From Myxococcales bacterium (lineage in GTDB: Bacteria; Myxococcota; UBA727; JABDBI01): a stretch of DNA of 64,000 nt. A program made the translations under genes and the position numbers. This document shows, in pieces, positions 3,118-47,654 of the stretch. Every line of letters begins with the position of its first letter. Within the stretch, counting starts at the first letter, position 1. The DNA is taken from NCBI GenBank assembly GCA_023248545.1, contig JAHFEF010000002.1, forward strand, positions 14,908 to 78,907, written 5' to 3'. The notes beneath the pieces were generated by a model that saw only the letters and a list, made by a program, of their open reading frames with translations, made no database searches and had not been told where the DNA came from.

Positions 3118-3179
3118 CTCCCCAATATAGCTCGAACAGTGTCCCGCGCCAATATCTAGCTGTGCTGATATTAAATATT

Positions 3180-4304
3180 ATGACAAACGCCTATATTGCC
3201 GCCACTGGAATTGCTGTTCCGCCTGCTGTTCCCACGGAAAGATTTTTAGAAATCGATCAAAAATACCGAGCCAGACATGGCCAGAGCCGTGAAGTGCGGG
3301 ACATGATCAGGCAATTTGTTGAAAATGCACAAATCAAACAGCGGCATAGTGTCTGTTCTGGTTGGTTCCTGCCAGGAACTAATTCAGAGGGCTATGAAGA
3401 CATATTTACAGAGTATGACTACGATCCACCAGCGTACTTAAGGGCACGATATTGGCATGAGCAAGCTCCTAAAATGGCGATTCAAGCGGCTCAAAATATG
3501 CTGGCTCATTGGTCTGGGAGTGTGGCTGATATTACACATGTTGTGACGACATCTACTTCAGGTTGGGCTGAGCCAGGGATTGCTGTTGAATTGATTGAAG
3601 CACTCGGTTTGTCAGAAGACACGCGTAAGATCGAAATTAATATCAATGGCTGTTTTTGTGGCGCGAGCTGTCTTAGAACTGCGCGCGATATTATTCGAGG
3701 AGGCGAAGCTAAAAATGTCTTAGTGGTTGCAACAGAGCTTGCTTCTATACAGTATAATATGCTCGAAACTGATGTCTCACAGTTGATATCGAGCTCTTTG
3801 TTTGCCGACGGTGCGGCAGCAGCAATCGTCTCGGCTGAAAATTCAAAGGGGGCGTGGGCTTTTGATAAAGCTGGCATGTCATTGGTGCCAGGCAGCAAGC
3901 ACATGCTCAAATTAAACCCGGATTTTGAAAAAGAAGCGACGGCTGTTAAGATGTTTCTACACCAGGGTGTTTCTAAAGCACTGGCTGGCTATTTTCAGTC
4001 AGGACGAGGTCGTGGCTTGTTGGATGATATTCTAAAAGACGCGCCCAGTTACCCAGCATTGGCAGTTCACCCCGGTGGGCCGAATATCTTAGACGGCATG
4101 AATGGTGTTTTGTTAGAACGCGGTTGGCCAAAAAATTGCTTAGACGCGTCGTATGCGACGCTGCATGAAACAGGTAATTTGGGCTCAGCAGCCGTATTAT
4201 TTGTTTTAGATCGCTTGATGCGCGAGACAGAAAATAGGAAAATGGCCTATTTTGCGTTTGGTCCCGGCGTCACAGTGGAGTGGGGAAGTTTGAGCAGCGT
4301 TTGA
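3180..4304 (+). CDS. Type III polyketide synthase (chalcone/stilbene synthase family)
   Basis: All three catalytic-triad contexts are present: Cys in NGCFCGASCLRTA, His in AVHPGGPNILDG, Asn in HETGNLGSAAVLFVLD. The ORF-track start at 3162 is a GTG; the first ATG is at 3180 (MTNAYIAATGIAVP). The gene is divergent from tal-pgi. Confidence 0.85.
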   Translation: MTNAYIAATGIAVPPAVPTERFLEIDQKYRARHGQSREVRDMIRQFVENAQIKQRHSVCSGWFLPGTNSEGYEDIFTEYDYDPPAYLRARYWHEQAPKMAIQAAQNMLAHWSGSVADITHVVTTSTSGWAEPGIAVELIEALGLSEDTRKIEININGCFCGASCLRTARDIIRGGEAKNVLVVATELASIQYNMLETDVSQLISSSLFADGAAAAIVSAENSKGAWAFDKAGMSLVPGSKHMLKLNPDFEKEATAVKMFLHQGVSKALAGYFQSGRGRGLLDDILKDAPSYPALAVHPGGPNILDGMNGVLLERGWPKNCLDASYATLHETGNLGSAAVLFVLDRLMRETENRKMAYFAFGPGVTVEWGSLSSV

Positions 4305-4320: not shown

Positions 4321-7300
4321 ATGAAACTCTCTGCTGATCATATATTGGCCCCCCTGTTTGAACTGGCTCAATCTGACCCGAATCGGGTGGTTTTTACGTT
4401 TGTAGATGATCAGGGCCAAGATGTTGAAGTCAGAACAGCATCACAGATGGCTGACCGTGCTCAAAGTTTGGCATATTATTTGCTCGACGGTTGTGGGCTC
4501 AAGCCAGGCGATGCGGTGCTATTGGTGTATCCGCCTAGTCTTGAGTTCATCGACGCATTTGCGGCCTGTATGTTGGCAGGATTGGTGGCTGCCCCGGTCT
4601 ATCCCCCAAATTTGGCACGACCTGAAAGTGATCTTGCCAGACTGGAGTTGGTGGCCAAGGCTTCAAACGCCAAGGCTATGTTGACGAACCGAGCCTATCG
4701 CTGGGGCGTTCGGTTAAGCTTCAAAGGCCGATGGCCTTCTCTTCCTTGGATTGTCACCCACCTGCGCCAAGGTTTTGATGGGCAAGCGAAGGGGGAAATT
4801 GAAAATCCAATAGCGCTTCTCCAATTTACTTCAGGCTCGACGTCAACTCCAAAAGGCGTTCGCATCACACATGCCAATTTGAGGCACCAGCTTTCACTCT
4901 ATCGAGAACAAGTTTCTGTCGACGAAAGCATTCGTGGCGTCATGTGGGTGCCGCAGTACCATGATTTAGGTCTTATCTGTGGAATTACGGCGGGTTTACA
5001 TGCCCAAGGGTCCTACTGGATCCTCTCGCCGTTTTCTTTTTTAAAAAAGCCAGCCGTCTGGTTTGACGTAATTAATAGAGTTCGAGCCACACACACAGCG
5101 TCGCCCAATTTTGGTTTCGAGTTGGTCACGCGCAAGACAACGCTCAAACAACGAGCCTCGTGGGACTTAAGTTGTCTCAGGCTGATATTGAGTGCCGCCG
5201 AGCCAATTGTTCCCCGTACAATGGATGCTTTTTTTAAAGCCTTCGAAGTATCGAAATTATCTCCTCAAGCTTTTTATCCGGGTTATGGTTTGGCAGAGCA
5301 TGCTGTAGGTGTGACGTTTGGCGGGCAGCAGCGCTTTAAGTTGAATCGTCAAAAGATGTTAGAAAACCAACAGGTTGTTTTTGATGACAACGGTCTAGAA
5401 ATTACCGGTTGTGGTAAGCCTTATGGGGATATTAAAGTCCGCATTGTCTCATCCGAGGGCAAACAGGCATTGCCCGAGGATCAAATCGGCGAGATTTGGG
5501 TGCAGTCTGCCAGTGTCGCCGACGGTTACGAAGGCAATCCAGAAGCCACACAAGAAGTATTCAAAAACGTATTGAGCAACGAGCCCGGGTTTTGGCTGAA
5601 AACAGGCGATTTAGGTTTTCTGCACGGGGGCGAATTATTTATCACGGGTCGCCAGAAAGACCTGGTGATTATTCGAGGCCGCAATATTCACCCTGAAGAT
5701 ATTGAAGAATCTCTACGCTATGCACATCCAGCGATTCGACCCGGCGGCTTAGCGGCGTTTGCAGTGATGGGCGAAGCCACTGAAGAACTAGCAGTTTTAA
5801 TCGAAATCGACGACGCGAAGCACGATCAAGCACCTGAAGCACTTCAGGCAGCTAAACACAAATTAGGTGAAACTTGGGGCTTGCAGGCTCGACTGATTGC
5901 TGTGCCAACCAAGACCGTCAAAAAAACAACGAGTGGCAAAATCCAACGCTCGGCCAACCAAAAAGCGTTTTTAGCAAACCAGATCAAAGAACTCGGTATT
6001 TTAGAGCCACAGGAGCAGGCTAGGCCAATTAATTTCGACGAGCCCTTGTTTGAGCAAATATCAGAAATACCCGTCGAAGAACGTGTTGATTGGTTGATAG
6101 CCGGTATGCAAGCGATTGTTTTAGGCAAGCTATCGAATGAGGTGACACAGGTTGGCCCGGATGATTTTTTGCCGAACACAGGATTAGATTCTCTGGCCAG
6201 CGCCGAGTTATTACAGCTTTTAGAAGAAAAAACAGGCCAAACACTGCCCAGCACCTTGTTTATCGAATATCCCACATTGCGCAAAGCAGCGATGCGCGTG
6301 TTGAGCATTATCGGAGTCGAACACACTGGAGAATTGGCAGTTCCTGATCTTGAACAGCCATTGGTCTATCGACCACCGATTCGCTCCATGCTTCCTGGGA
6401 AAACGCGGATTGGGATCGTGGGTGGCGGCGTCGCTGGGTTGGTGTCTGCCTATGAATTGGCAAAGCTTGGCTACAAGCAAATCACGTTGTTCGAATCCGA
6501 AGCCAACTGTGGCGGCAAAGTTTTGACGGAATATCGTGATCAGGAAGCCATCGAGTTGGGGCAGAATTTTTTTGTGGACTCATTTTCGACGGTGATTGGC
6601 CTGGCCAATGAATTGGAATTGCCATTAAATCCTGCCGACAATACATTCCAACAGTGGACGCCGGATGTTGGTTACGAAGAGGGCCCCGCCCGAAAGCCGT
6701 CGCGCATTTGGATGCGTAACCTTGCCAAGGCTGGGCGTGTTGAATTAAATCCTCGATTGGGTTTGCCCGTGTTGCTGGAGGGTCGCGAAGAGCCATTTTC
6801 AAGTTTCATCAAGCGTCATCATTTAAGTGTCCACCCGATGTTCTATTTTGATTGGAATGCCATGGGGTATGGCTTTGATCTCGAAATGCCGGCTTGTTAT
6901 GTTCTCGCTTATCTTCAACACGTAGGAAGCAGCAGCAACGTTTGTTATTTGCCGAACGGAAATCAACAACTTTGGACAACATTGGCTGAGCGTTTGGAAA
7001 AAACTTGGGGTGTTCAAATTCGACGTGGCCACAAGGTGAGCAGCATTCATCCGACTGAAACGGGTGTTTTGATCGACCAGGAGCATTATGACGAGGTAAT
7101 TTCGGCGGTTCCGCCGGATTTATTGGCCTCATTGCTGCCCCAAGAAGATCCGCTGCAACCCCTATTGGAGCAGTTTGAATACATGGGTTATTCGATTCAT
7201 GCCATCAAAGCGAAGGGTTTATTTGAAAAGGGTGCTGTATTGTTTCCGGAATGGGCGAAGCAACAGGGACCACTGGTAACGATGCAAGCATGTGTTAAGC

Positions 7301-7626
7301 GGCAAGGTTGGTATCTCATGGGTCAATTCGCTTCGGGGCATTCCAAGCAGTTGGATAATATGCCGGAGTCTGATTTGCGTGGCGAGATACAGCATGGCAT
7401 AACGCTGATGGGCGGTCATATCACCGAATGGGGGCCTCATAGAACTTGGAAGTACTTCCCGCATGTTCGAAAAAATCCTGTGTCTGTTTTGCAACAAGCA
7501 GAGAGATTGCAGGGTTCAAGACACGTGTGGACGACGGGGTCTTGGATGGCGTTCGAGACAACCGAACACACAGCCAGACATGCAGGGCATTTGGTTCGAA
7601 CGTGTTTTGACCCGGCTGATTTTTAA
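4321..7626 (+). CDS. Tri-domain protein: fatty acyl-AMP ligase (FAAL), acyl carrier domain, and FAD-dependent amine-oxidase/desaturase-like oxidoreductase
   Basis: Residues ~1-560 carry adenylation motifs (QFTSGSTSTPKGVRITHANL, YGLAEH, GDLGF, GRQKDLVIIRGRN) and a FAAL-type insertion. The phosphopantetheine site GLDSLAS has its Ser codon at 6190-6192. The C-terminal ~400 aa starts with the Rossmann motif IGIVGGGVAGLVSAYELAKLG...ESEANCGGK, typical of the amine-oxidase / protoporphyrinogen-oxidase / CrtI superfamily. An SD (agagagga) lies 8 nt before the ATG, 16 nt after the PKS stop. Confidence 0.8.
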   Translation: MKLSADHILAPLFELAQSDPNRVVFTFVDDQGQDVEVRTASQMADRAQSLAYYLLDGCGLKPGDAVLLVYPPSLEFIDAFAACMLAGLVAAPVYPPNLARPESDLARLELVAKASNAKAMLTNRAYRWGVRLSFKGRWPSLPWIVTHLRQGFDGQAKGEIENPIALLQFTSGSTSTPKGVRITHANLRHQLSLYREQVSVDESIRGVMWVPQYHDLGLICGITAGLHAQGSYWILSPFSFLKKPAVWFDVINRVRATHTASPNFGFELVTRKTTLKQRASWDLSCLRLILSAAEPIVPRTMDAFFKAFEVSKLSPQAFYPGYGLAEHAVGVTFGGQQRFKLNRQKMLENQQVVFDDNGLEITGCGKPYGDIKVRIVSSEGKQALPEDQIGEIWVQSASVADGYEGNPEATQEVFKNVLSNEPGFWLKTGDLGFLHGGELFITGRQKDLVIIRGRNIHPEDIEESLRYAHPAIRPGGLAAFAVMGEATEELAVLIEIDDAKHDQAPEALQAAKHKLGETWGLQARLIAVPTKTVKKTTSGKIQRSANQKAFLANQIKELGILEPQEQARPINFDEPLFEQISEIPVEERVDWLIAGMQAIVLGKLSNEVTQVGPDDFLPNTGLDSLASAELLQLLEEKTGQTLPSTLFIEYPTLRKAAMRVLSIIGVEHTGELAVPDLEQPLVYRPPIRSMLPGKTRIGIVGGGVAGLVSAYELAKLGYKQITLFESEANCGGKVLTEYRDQEAIELGQNFFVDSFSTVIGLANELELPLNPADNTFQQWTPDVGYEEGPARKPSRIWMRNLAKAGRVELNPRLGLPVLLEGREEPFSSFIKRHHLSVHPMFYFDWNAMGYGFDLEMPACYVLAYLQHVGSSSNVCYLPNGNQQLWTTLAERLEKTWGVQIRRGHKVSSIHPTETGVLIDQEHYDEVISAVPPDLLASLLPQEDPLQPLLEQFEYMGYSIHAIKAKGLFEKGAVLFPEWAKQQGPLVTMQACVKRQGWYLMGQFASGHSKQLDNMPESDLRGEIQHGITLMGGHITEWGPHRTWKYFPHVRKNPVSVLQQAERLQGSRHVWTTGSWMAFETTEHTARHAGHLVRTCFDPADF

Positions 7627-27537: not shown

Positions 27538-27792
27538 ATGCAAAATATGAAATCCTGTCGCTGTCCACATCACTCAATGACCGCAATTTTTCTGGTTCTT
27601 CTGGCCCTTACGATCTTTCTAGGTAATGCCGGGGTGATCGCTGAACATACAGCCAGTATGATCTGGCCTGTATTCTTGGGGCTGATTGGTCTTCAAAAAG
27701 TCTTTGGGCGCCGTTGCAAGTGCTGCGCGGGTGAAGGCTGCCAATGTGGTTGCTGTACAGGCAGTGAATCTCAGTCTGGCAAATGCTGCTGA
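27538..27792 (+). CDS. Small membrane protein with Cys-rich C-terminus (possible metal-binding)
   Basis: 84 aa, two TM helices, then RRCKCCAGEGCQCGCCTGSESQSGKCC. Lies 4 nt after pssA. Confidence 0.45.
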   Translation: MQNMKSCRCPHHSMTAIFLVLLALTIFLGNAGVIAEHTASMIWPVFLGLIGLQKVFGRRCKCCAGEGCQCGCCTGSESQSGKCC

Positions 27793-28628
27793 TGTCTCAG
27801 TTTATTGCGTTTGAACGCAATAAATGGTCTCAGTGCATAGTACAGAAAAAATAAGCCATCTGGCAAAGCCAAAGCCTGAAAGTCTTGAAGTCTTGGGACA
27901 AAGAGGCTGAACAGGACTTTGGCTTTGTTTTTAAATTTTTTGCGCAGAGCTAATTTGTGCCACCAATCCGACCATCGCCAAACGTAGGAACCCGTACGAC
28001 CCGTCTTTATTTGTAGCCCTTCTCTTAATGTCCCAGCTAAATCCCACTGATCAGCTTCTTTCCTAATCAAATTCCAATCAAGCTCATATTTTGCTAATAA
28101 TTTTTGAATATCGAGTGCCCATTGGGGTCTCGACCAACCCGACTCACAGCCATGCGTGCATAAATAAAGCAAATTATATTCTGGGCTCAGATGTTTAATC
28201 TGAACACCTAAAAGCTCAGTGGTCTGCAAACTAATATCAAACACAGAAAAGCACTCCCAGTCTTGAAACAGGCGCCAGTGCAGCTCTAAACAAATTTGTT
28301 TTTTGGGGTGCCAATAAACAAAATCTTTGCTCCAGTGAATATGTGCTTGAAGTTGCCGAGGTGTTAAGAACGACCGTTGATAGCCTTGTTGTTGCAGAAT
28401 ATGATCGGCCTCGAAAATATTTTTAGGCTTTATGACCAGGTCAATATCTTTTGATTTCCGAGCACCCAAATCGCCATAGAGCTCGAGTGCTAACAGAGGA
28501 CCCTTAATAGCAACAGACTCTATTTTTGCGTGCGCCAACAGTGAAACTATAGAAACCAGTTCAGCGCATTGGCCTAGTGCCTGCTTAGGATTGAAGTAAC
28601 CCAATATCGCCGCCGCTGCTAATAGCAT
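27771..28628 (-). CDS. Pol-beta-superfamily nucleotidyltransferase of the 'uncharacterised nucleotidyltransferase' type that accompanies PqqD-family proteins
   Basis: 285 aa. IKGPLLALELYGDLGARKSKDIDLVIKPKN matches the hG[GS]...DhD NTase motif. The true start is uncertain: the annotated ATG lies 76 nt inside the upstream small ORF. Confidence 0.7.
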   Translation of the reverse strand: MLLAAAAILGYFNPKQALGQCAELVSIVSLLAHAKIESVAIKGPLLALELYGDLGARKSKDIDLVIKPKNIFEADHILQQQGYQRSFLTPRQLQAHIHWSKDFVYWHPKKQICLELHWRLFQDWECFSVFDISLQTTELLGVQIKHLSPEYNLLYLCTHGCESGWSRPQWALDIQKLLAKYELDWNLIRKEADQWDLAGTLREGLQIKTGRTGSYVWRWSDWWHKLALRKKFKNKAKVLFSLFVPRLQDFQALALPDGLFFLYYALRPFIAFKRNKLRHQQHLPD

Positions 28629-28704
28629 TTTCGGTGTCTAAATTGACATCGGCAATCTGAGTGATCTCAGGTTTTGTCCAGATCTTTTTCGCTTCCTCAG
28701 CCAT
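28585..28704 (-). CDS. Candidate RiPP-like precursor peptide, 39 aa, with a PqqA-like leader. It is not in the ORF track.
   Basis: Hand translation of the minus strand gives ATG(28704-28702) MAEEAKKIWTKPEITQIADVNLDTENAISSGGDIGLLQS then TAA(28587-28585). The ATG is 10 nt after the stop of the PqqD-family gene. Confidence 0.4.
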   Translation of the reverse strand: MAEEAKKIWTKPEITQIADVNLDTENAISSGGDIGLLQS

Positions 28705-28714
28705 GTCTGGCAGT

Positions 28715-29005
28715 CTAGCTCAGAGGCTGGACAACTTGCAACAAATTCTGAGTCAATAACTGATTCAGAAATTCTAAAACTTCCTGCTCACACTGTTTTT
28801 TCGAGACTTCGAACTCTCGTCCGAGCTTGTCGCATAGCTGAGTGATCTCTGTGGGTTGCTCCAGGAGCTCCCAAATTCTTCGACCAACCGAGTTGACACC
28901 GTAATACTTGCCAGTTTGTATGCTGAGCATGACCAAGTCTTCGTCTAAGCAGCTGCTGATCAGATTTTTATTTCTCGCCACGGTGTCATTGAGTTGAAGC
29001 TTCAT
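28715..29005 (-). CDS. PqqD-family protein (RiPP recognition element / peptide chaperone)
   Basis: 96 aa. LVMLSIQTGKYYGVNSVGRRIWELLEQPTEITQLCDKL...EVLEFLNQLLTQNLL matches the PqqD winged-helix consensus (yy.LN..g..IW.ll.g..t..ei...l). Confidence 0.8.
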   Translation of the reverse strand: MKLQLNDTVARNKNLISSCLDEDLVMLSIQTGKYYGVNSVGRRIWELLEQPTEITQLCDKLGREFEVSKKQCEQEVLEFLNQLLTQNLLQVVQPLS

Positions 29006-46559: not shown

Positions 46560-47654
46560 ATGAGATGTATAAATCTGTTTTCTATTTTAGCTTGTATGAT
46601 TGGTTTCGCCACATTTTCAACGGGAGCATCAGCTACGGTTGAGGTGGAAGGTTTTATCGAAGGTACATTGGTAAAGACACCAGAGGGCTATTCAAAGATT
46701 GAGACCCTGTTAGTTGGTGATCTTGTTATGAGTTGTGATTTTGAAGGAAGTTGTGTAGAGCGTCAGGTTCTTAAGACCTCTAAGAAAGAAGCATCTAGGT
46801 ATCTCGAAATTGAAGTAGATGGCCAAAAAATTGGTGTTGGCTATAGCCACAAGCTTTTTTCCTGTGATACTGATTTCTGGACAAATGCCACAAACATCAA
46901 GAATTCGTCGTCCCTAATGAATGCTCTACACAGGAATGTTTCTGTAAGTAACGTCGGTGTGATTCGTGAAACAGTGACTCTTTATAATCTTTCTATTGAG
47001 CAGTTCCAAAACTATTTTGTCAGCATGGCTGATGTATTGGTTCATAACTATGCTGCTCAAGAGCTTGATGCGATGTTGGATGCAATGTCTCCTAGAGATA
47101 GGGCGCAGATTCTTATCATGGAATCCGCGAAAAGATATGGTCTCCACAGCCCCCCACAGCTTTCCTATATCTTGGCGACAGCAGAACATGAAACCATGAA
47201 CTTCAAAACCATGAAGGAAATAGGTGGTTCGAAGATGCCATATGCCCCATATTATGGGCGAGGTTATGTGCAGCTCACTCATAAATTCAATTATGAAAAA
47301 TTCTCAAAGCTATTCGGAGAGGATATTGTAAGCAATCCAGACCGTGCGATGGACCCGAGATATGCGTCTGATGTCATTGTTTTTGGAATGATGATGGGGG
47401 TTTTTACCGGAGAATTAAAAAAGGATGGTAAAAACTGGAGTGGGAAAAAGCTTATCGATTATATCGTTGGAAATGGTGATGGAACAGGCAAGGCTGATTT
47501 TGTTAATGCACGCAGGATTATTAACAGTCTAGACAGGGCTGAGCATATTGCCGGGCTTGCCAAGAAATGGCTGCAATATTTCAAGAATACGAGAGGCACT
47601 CCAAATGGGGACATCAAATTTTTGCAATGGATGCCTTGGCATAACGAGTTGTAG
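46560..47654 (+). CDS. Secreted Hint-domain protein fused to a glycoside-hydrolase-family-19 (lysozyme/chitinase-like) domain; candidate polymorphic-toxin-type peptidoglycan hydrolase
   Basis: Signal peptide MRCINLFSILACMIGFATFSTGASA. The Hint N-block GFIEGTLVKTPEGYSKIETLLVGDLV resembles the intein A block but lacks Cys1. The C-block ends LVHN-Y. The C-terminal domain has GH19 signatures: ATAEHET and YYGRGYVQLTHKFNY (compare YYGRGPIQLSWNYNY). SD ggaggg. Confidence 0.6.
   Translation: MRCINLFSILACMIGFATFSTGASATVEVEGFIEGTLVKTPEGYSKIETLLVGDLVMSCDFEGSCVERQVLKTSKKEASRYLEIEVDGQKIGVGYSHKLFSCDTDFWTNATNIKNSSSLMNALHRNVSVSNVGVIRETVTLYNLSIEQFQNYFVSMADVLVHNYAAQELDAMLDAMSPRDRAQILIMESAKRYGLHSPPQLSYILATAEHETMNFKTMKEIGGSKMPYAPYYGRGYVQLTHKFNYEKFSKLFGEDIVSNPDRAMDPRYASDVIVFGMMMGVFTGELKKDGKNWSGKKLIDYIVGNGDGTGKADFVNARRIINSLDRAEHIAGLAKKWLQYFKNTRGTPNGDIKFLQWMPWHNEL

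Follow-up and report, generated by a model that had tools for sequence, protein, structure and literature searches.

Between a gene for a PqqD-fold protein and a gene for a nucleotidyltransferase (NTase) on contig JAHFEF010000002.1 of a Myxococcales bacterium (GenBank assembly GCA_023248545.1), the minus strand carries an open reading frame (ORF) of 39 codons. The question raised by this locus is whether the ORF encodes a peptide and, if it does, what would be made from it. The stretch analysed, referred to here as the window, is 64 kb long. A preliminary description of the window had seen in the ORF a small peptide gene with a leader like that of PqqA. Comparison with related loci indicates that the ORF, designated gene A, is a real, conserved and unannotated gene, and that it very probably encodes a lasso-peptide precursor. 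This assignment is common to three readings of the locus, in which gene A belongs to a split cluster, to a relic or to a three-gene module. The first of these, in which gene A is functional and the B2 protease and the cyclase are encoded elsewhere in the genome, has about an even chance of being correct. Features of gene A, in window coordinates, are as follows.

28585..28704, minus strand: predicted lasso-peptide precursor gene (A), 39 codons plus TAA; the leader comprises codons 1-25 or 1-26, and the core is NAISSGGDIGLLQS or AISSGGDIGLLQS.
28663..28680, minus strand: W-x-x-P-x-[I/L] leader motif (W-T-K-P-E-I, codons 9-14); W9 and P12 are invariant, with I or L at position 14, in the six aligned family members and in the related locus L011.
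28606..28608, minus strand: codon for Asp33, predicted macrolactam acceptor (predicted ring of 7 or 8 residues); invariant in the six-member alignment and present also in loci L011 and L012.
28588..28590, minus strand: codon for the C-terminal Ser39, predicted tailoring site; Ser ends the peptide in 7/7 members, with paeninodin and pseudomycoidin as precedent (PMC6993621, PMC9266682).

Position and record status of gene A

Translation of the minus strand gave MAEEAKKIWTKPEITQIADVNLDTENAISSGGDIGLLQS followed by a stop codon, with ATG at 28704-28702 and TAA at 28587-28585, exactly as in the preliminary description. The sequence upstream of the ATG (…GAGCTAGACTGCCAGAC-ATG) includes no Shine-Dalgarno (SD) sequence, which had also been noted. 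Gene A is uncalled in the NCBI and ENA records of the contig. Its exact peptide is on record from one Logan assembly only, and both neighbours are recorded from NCBI, ENA and Logan, so that the term 'unannotated' used for the ORF was appropriate. The 18 kb examined contain 191 ORFs of at least 30 amino acids (aa), and a 39-codon ORF is by itself not significant. Because ORFs of such length are common, the case for gene A rests on conservation.

Conservation of the reading frame

An exhaustive profile search of 1.84e9 (1.84 billion) proteins retrieved six family members (E = 1e-22 to 1e-5) and one repeat-protein false positive. A seventh member, L011 (…ETENAVSAGGDIGLLAS), came from a six-frame hidden Markov model (HMM) search of the fetched loci, which also gave more distant leaders in L012, L030, L008 and L027. 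Word-indexed searches of proteins, with either the single peptide or a 3-sequence profile as query, found no members beyond those already known, and none of the 123 pattern matches from a metagenome scan with the peptide alignment was confirmed by tblastn. Pfam and NCBIfam contained no family for the peptide at E<=1, and none of their curated precursor models matched.

Residues M1, K6, K7, W9, P12, I17, D19, V20, T24, E25, D33 and L37 are invariant in the alignment of six members. The W..P tetrad occurs as WTKP, WMTP, WIKP, WVKP, WVAP, WTTP and WEEP, with only W and P constant. Among the window, L002 and L059, pairwise leader differences at codon positions 1/2/3 number 1/5/13, 2/3/12 and 3/2/8; read in either of the other frames, almost every change would alter the amino acid. 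The third-position bias is confined to the gene A frame, which is therefore protein-coding and under constraint. Frame and motif are retained in the syntenic relatives, the latter through its W and P. The existence of a genuine small peptide gene, as claimed in the preliminary description, is thus supported, in the form of a precursor of a ribosomally synthesised and post-translationally modified peptide (RiPP), by homologues, synteny and codon-position bias.

The window peptide is the most consensus-like member of the family, at 78.9 bits in leave-one-out scoring. Its own branch carries 11 synonymous and 9 non-synonymous changes (binomial P = 0.004 for a neutral ratio of 1:3), of which 8 and 3, respectively, fall in the leader (P = 0.001, same ratio). 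Other assemblies of the same strain are >=99.97% identical and hold no population signal.

It is very improbable that the ORF arose by chance, or that it merely belongs to the NTase transcript as an N-terminal or leader part and yields no peptide. Short ORFs are abundant, and this one has no SD and overlaps the NTase start. However, chance would not explain the strength of the profile matches, the substitution bias or the preservation of the frame at differing genomic places, including those where no NTase is adjacent (L057, L060/61).

Identification as a lasso-peptide precursor

Genes for Asn-synthetase-like cyclases directly adjoin the homologous peptide gene in L002, L003, L057, L059, L060/61 and L011. 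The best NCBIfam match of the relatives' cyclases is NF033535, at 249-435 bits and thus below the 525-bit cutoff. These flanking cyclases, the W-x-x-P-x-I motif, the invariant Thr and an Asp situated 7-8 residues into the core together point to a lasso precursor. W-x-x-P-x-I would be the counterpart of the lasso YxxPxL motif (PMC10368454) with Trp replacing Tyr, and is presumed to be the docking site for B1, the product of the gene immediately upstream. A docking role of the W..P segment for the adjacent PqqD-fold protein, proposed in the preliminary description, is therefore still to be expected, the neighbour being a predicted lasso B1.

The PqqA type proposed at the same time did not hold. 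A substrate of a pyrroloquinoline quinone (PQQ)-type pathway recognised by a PqqD was suggested by the PqqD-fold neighbour and by the WTKP shared with Pseudomonas PqqA, a resemblance that no model reproduces. The likeness consists of a small peptide with an N-terminal W-x-x-P beside a PqqD-fold protein, and of the logic by which a RiPP recognition element (RRE) recognises a leader. However, an HMM comparison detected no PqqA homology (no PqqA model in Pfam or NCBIfam at E<=1), no PqqA chain was found among PDB sequences, and the 'TK' of WTKP varies freely in the family. The peptide is without Tyr and hence without a Glu-x3-Tyr crosslink pair, as had been pointed out from the start. Furthermore, B1 fails the PQQ PqqD model TIGR03859 (24.5 bits, cutoff 46) and passes the lasso B1 model NF033536 (92.6 bits, cutoff 80), and no PqqB, PqqC or PqqE was found among the window ORFs. 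A PqqA-like peptide can practically be dismissed. Taken as a whole, the earlier interpretation stands with respect to a RiPP precursor, an RRE-binding leader and a Ser probably targeted by the NTase, with the lasso type taking the place of the PqqA type.

Gene order in related genomes

Relatives of B1 with 62-74% identity are found in the same slot, OmpA-CpoB-nuclease … LiaF-TM-PssA-M24-Na/H exchanger. Two of the loci are arranged as follows.

L002 (closest relative): B1-B2-cyclase-[39-aa ORF MEEEVKKIWMTPEITQIVDVNLETENAFASGIDLAMLAS], then an ORF with the same 44-nt overlap as that between gene A and the NTase gene in the window.
L003: B1-cyclase-[43-aa ORF MEEEQKKAWVKPKILEIIDVISETENSMQPAGGDIALLEAATS]-NTase.

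Only the first 132 nt of the ORF after gene A are present on the L002 contig. B2 is present in L002, L007 and L001/L058 and passes NF033537. No B2 protease was detectable in the 14.8-kb locus of L003 (genes at 4495-7369), which recalls the finding that pseudomycoidin can form without B proteins in E. coli (PMC6993621). L059 comprises cyclase-A-NTase elsewhere in its genome, with neither B1 nor B2 adjacent.

In GCA_040384225.1, contig JAWVHC010000006.1 carries a complete lasso set in two loci ~184 kb apart. B1-B2-NTase lie in the slot (L058, 10001-11624, at ~600 kb), and a cyclase gene and the precursor P0014 form the second locus (L057, 8278-10120, at ~784 kb). The L057 cyclase looks orthologous, and next after the cyclase and precursor genes come a pilin-like (N_methyl) gene and two genes without a Pfam match. 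Dispersed but complete gene sets thus exist in this lineage, in the one case of GCA_040384225.1.

The identity tree of the flanking genes is ((window, L002), L003), L001/L058, and the outgroup L011 has the order K-B1-B2-C-A-D. From this tree and the L011 order, the ancestral slot was therefore B1-B2-C-A-N, and the B1-A-N arrangement of the window is derived. The wider B1 clade (L008-L045) is a kinase-associated group mostly with a C-terminal Ser, in agreement with what is published for paeninodin, pseudomycoidin and Bsf (PMC6993621, PMC9266682, PMC10368454). HprK-like kinases, detected with an HMM built from L011, L012 and L030, are encoded in ~25 of its loci, and several include PF14907 NTases. 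A profile scan of genome contigs with the B1 alignment gave only three distant loci. One lasso cluster, L012 (998-10803), combines an HprK-like kinase and a GT8 glycosyltransferase with a precursor ending in …GADLGVYS, and also has four sulfotransferase-domain genes, one of them fused to radical SAM/SPASM.

The derived state of the window is located at a short spacer.

28705..28714, minus strand: spacer from the B1 stop to the A start, 10 nt, compared with the L002 gene order.

Judged by the ~2 kb with B2 and the cyclase that L002 holds at this place, the spacer is the junction of a loss or relocation, which left B1, A and the NTase gene intact. Alignment of the DNA for deletion breakpoints could not locate the junction as the sequences are too divergent. 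An assembly artefact as the cause of the missing genes was rejected, and the window arrangement is real, since B1-A-NTase is found in three independent assemblies.

The leader-core boundary

Two registers can be drawn for the predicted processing site. In register B the core is N26-S39 with an Asn1-Asp8 ring, Thr at -2, and W, P and I at -17, -14 and -12, which is the canonical spacing quoted in PMC10368454. In register A the core is A27-S39 with an Ala1-Asp7 ring and Thr at -3. Register A gives A, A, A, S and G, canonical small residues, as the first core residue across members, with N in P0014, and the cores of paeninodin and pseudomycoidin likewise begin with Ala (PMC6993621). Against register B, the first core residue would be Asn (Phe in P0014); against register A, Thr is off the canonical -2, and exceptions to Thr(-2) are documented (PMC10368454). 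The W-T spacing does not decide the register because P0015 is one residue shorter between W and T.

Non-canonical first residues are seen in relatives, with Trp after DTS in L030 and Ile after MTQ in L044. L030, a lasso cluster with kinase and NTase, encodes two tandem precursors (5223-5366 and 5486-5632), both with Trp after the conserved D-T-S and hence likely with a non-canonical first core residue. L010, from an actinobacterial metagenome-assembled genome, encodes three paralogous putative precursors (3517-3660, 5148-5264 and 5848-5997) with a WTRP/WSSP leader, and their R-T-L-[T/S]-G junction shows the same -2/-3 ambiguity of Thr as the window family.

In either register the post-ring tail has six residues (IGLLQS) and no bulky plug. 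A bulky group attached to the C-terminal Ser has been suggested as a possible lock on the thread (PMC6993621), and the short plugless tail of the window peptide would fit this suggestion.

The genes flanking gene A

The genes on either side of gene A are as follows.

28715..29005, minus strand: B1, predicted lasso-type PqqD-fold leader-binding chaperone (RRE), 96 aa; PF05402, 3.6e-20; NF033536 lasso_PqqD_Bac.
27771..28628, minus strand: PF14907 (NTP_transf_5) NTase, 285 aa from ATG 28628 or 277 aa from TTG 28604; PF14907, 5.9e-41.

The best PDB relatives of B1, aligned over nearly its full length, are 9x90_B (E = 2e-17) and TbiB1 (5v1u/5v1v, E = 3e-13). The gene 5' of B1 encodes an AddB-like PD-(D/E)XK nuclease and not a cyclase.

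In the NTase, the catalytic G43, D61-x-D63 and E115 are intact, and these residues are invariant across eight lasso-linked NTases; 12 of the lasso loci fetched encode PF14907 homologues. N-terminal truncation of the NTase by decay was considered and rejected, as all orthologues begin at about Pfam position 51. The PDB sequence search gave no relative of the NTase, and a single-sequence structure model (mean predicted local distance difference test score, pLDDT, 37) was unusable.

The 44-nt out-of-frame overlap of gene A with the NTase ORF starting at ATG 28628 was as described earlier. The same overlap between the precursor 3' end and the first ATG of the NTase is found in three lineages (window 28585-28628, L002 12336-12379 and L059 2948-2991), with the ATG formed within AAT GCx, which encodes a conserved Asn-Ala of the peptide. 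This does not apply to L003, where a TTG at the peptide stop codon is used. For the earlier suggestion that the NTase starts further downstream, alignment of orthologues leaves TTG 28604 as the sole other in-frame start 5' of the conserved NTase sequence, and an overlap of 20 nt with gene A persists there too. At 27538-27792 on the plus strand lies a gene for a LiaF-TM-like membrane protein of 84 aa, the C-terminus of which is very rich in Cys (…CKCCAGEGCQCGCCTGSESQSGKCC); the gene is convergent with the NTase gene, overlaps its 3' end by 22 nt, and is conserved in position in L001 and L003.

By analogy with pseudomycoidin-type clusters, the downstream NTase probably tailors Ser39. The proposal, made in the preliminary description, that the adjacent NTase acts on the C-terminal Ser is thus likely to be correct, and the residue is invariant in the family.

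Comparison with known systems

During pseudomycoidin biosynthesis the precursor, still linear, is phosphorylated by a kinase at its C-terminal Ser, and the addition of a hexose to this phosphate requires PsmN, an 'uncharacterised NTP transferase'; paeninodin, like pseudomycoidin, is modified at its C-terminal Ser (PMC6993621, PMC9266682). The systems for paeninodin (Paenibacillus dendritiformis pade) and pseudomycoidin (Bacillus pseudomycoides psm) have in common with the window a short precursor with an aromatic-x-x-P-x-L/I leader, a small N-terminal core residue, a ring on Asp, a conserved C-terminal Ser and split B1/B2. Tailoring takes place there on the linear precursor, as is proposed here, and the pseudomycoidin cluster includes an NTP transferase gene (PsmN), likened to the PF14907 gene of the window by description only. 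In contrast, the loci of the window clade include neither an HprK-like kinase nor an ATP-binding cassette (ABC) exporter, and the clade's cluster is dispersed, with no cyclase or B2 in the window. The window precursor, unlike theirs, matches no curated NCBIfam or Pfam model, its core is very short (13-14 aa with the 6-residue tail), and the NTase and all its orthologues lack ~50 N-terminal Pfam positions. The subfamily of gene A would belong to the larger group of C-terminal-Ser lasso peptides with kinase/NTase tailoring.

The bsf cluster of Bradymonas sediminis, one of the prey-dependent Bradymonadales (class Deltaproteobacteria), consists of A, B1, B2, C, D, K and N (PMC10368454). By gene content it resembles the window family in the split B1/B2, a predicted nucleotidyltransferase (N), a YxxPxL-type leader and a non-canonical leader-core junction. 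In bsf, B1 was demonstrated to assist not only B2 but also a tailoring enzyme; other features of the Bsf system are the phosphorylation of Ser3 by its kinase, Ile at -2, a ring between Gly1 and Asp8, and a transporter (PMC10368454). For the window peptide, tailoring would presumably be directed at the C-terminal Ser, Thr occupies -2 or -3, and neither a kinase nor a transporter is present. B1 is expected to bind the leader through the same winged helix-turn-helix (wHTH) RRE fold as in the TbiB1-leader complex (5v1u/5v1v) and in 9x90_B, a 'lasso peptide biosynthesis PqqD family chaperone', although the window leader differs from that of the TbiB1 system in having Trp, not Tyr, at the first position of the motif.

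Proposed pathway and alternative explanations

In a functional split cluster, gene A would be translated without an SD by coupling to B1, the stop of which lies 10 nt upstream. B1 would bind the leader via W9, P12 and I14, and the NTase, coupled to gene A by the overlap, would modify the Ser39 hydroxyl on the leader-bound linear precursor. The B2 protease would cut off the leader after Thr24-Glu25(-Asn26), and the Asn-synthetase-like cyclase would link the new N-terminus to Asp33, closing a ring of 7 or 8 members and leaving a tail of six residues, for which a bulky Ser39 adduct may serve as plug. The genes for B2 and the cyclase, gone from this locus, would be encoded elsewhere. B1-assisted tailoring on a linear precursor has precedent (PMC10368454, PMC9266682); binding, the Ser39 chemistry, the cleavage site and the trans-encoded enzymes are inferred. 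Because gene A shows no decay and a sister genome has a split cluster, trans-encoded cyclase and B2 are favoured over a relic.

Several observations weigh against a split cluster that still works. The cyclase and the B2 protease are the genes that define a lasso cluster, and six-frame HMM and tblastn searches found no homologue of either, intact or as a fragment, in the 64-kb window. The few kb past the window ends include only housekeeping and flagellar genes and no cyclase. No HprK-like kinase was found by HMM in the window, L001-L007 or L057-L061, and PsmN, which represents the only characterised homologous setting, needs prior phosphate (PMC6993621). The preliminary description was silent on the absence of all three genes. 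Promoter, terminator and Rfam scans gave no signal above chance, and expression of gene A is predicted from sequence alone. The leader-core boundary is ambiguous, as Thr(-2) with W(-17) gives an unusual Asn1 and Ala1 puts Thr at -3. In addition, the selection signals span the whole branch, and therefore the times before and after the loss of cyclase and B2 are inseparable.

It is possible, though rather doubtful, that the locus is a stranded relic, with gene A a true lasso precursor by descent in a lineage that deleted B2 and the cyclase, makes no lasso peptide and retains the remainder because the deletion is recent. The absence of both genes from the locus and from the whole window is in keeping with this, as are the loss of the original sequence upstream of A, which included a GGAG, the occurrence of the same slot with four different gene contents in related lineages, which resembles erosion, and the frequency of incomplete lasso clusters in genome mining (PMC7533575). 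Yet A, B1 and the NTase have no frameshifts, stops or lost invariant residues, the window A is the most consensus-like of its family with a long branch of its own biased to synonymous changes, and both deletion end-points spared the flanking ORFs. Moreover, the one related genome inspected, GCA_040384225.1, keeps all five genes in a dispersed arrangement. A further explanation, that B1-A-NTase is a self-sufficient and complete minimal RiPP system, is unlikely. Here B1 would present the linear peptide, and the RRE-guided NTase would nucleotidylylate or otherwise decorate Ser39, placing a nucleotide or phospho-sugar on it, with no cyclase or kinase, to give a linear peptide modified at its C-terminus, the system having evolved from a lasso pathway. 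Such a module would account for the retention of B1 and the NTase in every syntenic slot examined (window, L001/L058 and L003; the L002 contig ends early), for the adjacency of A and the NTase, which in the window, L002 and L059 comes with a conserved overlap and in L003 does not, and for the lack of a kinase in the clade's loci (kinase HMM), and B1 proteins can assist tailoring enzymes (PMC10368454). However, Asp33 and Thr24 stay invariant, as expected only if cyclase and protease still act, the cyclase stays beside A in sister lineages, no precedent is known, and the only documented effect of PsmN is the hexose on phosphate (PMC6993621). In a weaker version of this proposal, the lasso peptides of the clade may be locked by a kinase-independent NTase adduct on the very short 6-residue tail. 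The split cluster with trans-encoded B2 and cyclase is therefore preferred, on the grounds given above.

Other loci in the window

A type III polyketide synthase gene (Chal_sti_synt; 3162-4304, plus strand) lies beside a gene for a 1101-aa fusion of AMP-binding, carrier protein and flavin amine oxidase parts (4321-7626, plus strand), and the two resemble a small biosynthetic locus in its own right. The gene at 46560-47654 on the plus strand encodes a secreted protein of 364 aa, which has a pretoxin HINT domain and a segment weakly similar to class I chitinases.

Significance

Gene A and its relatives form a small subfamily of lasso precursors that was previously unmodelled, with seven members, all of them missed by Pfam and NCBIfam. 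Should the locus be no more than a relic, its interest would be limited to annotation and to the dynamics of biosynthetic gene cluster erosion. Lasso genes are dispersed in this uncultured lineage, with one case proven at 184 kb, and cluster-based miners such as antiSMASH and RODEO would therefore miss such sets or call them incomplete. The PF14907 NTase family is widespread and, to our knowledge, biochemically uncharacterised. With an invariant C-terminal Ser, a PF14907 NTase and no kinase, the clade provides a clean system for asking what the role of this NTase family is.

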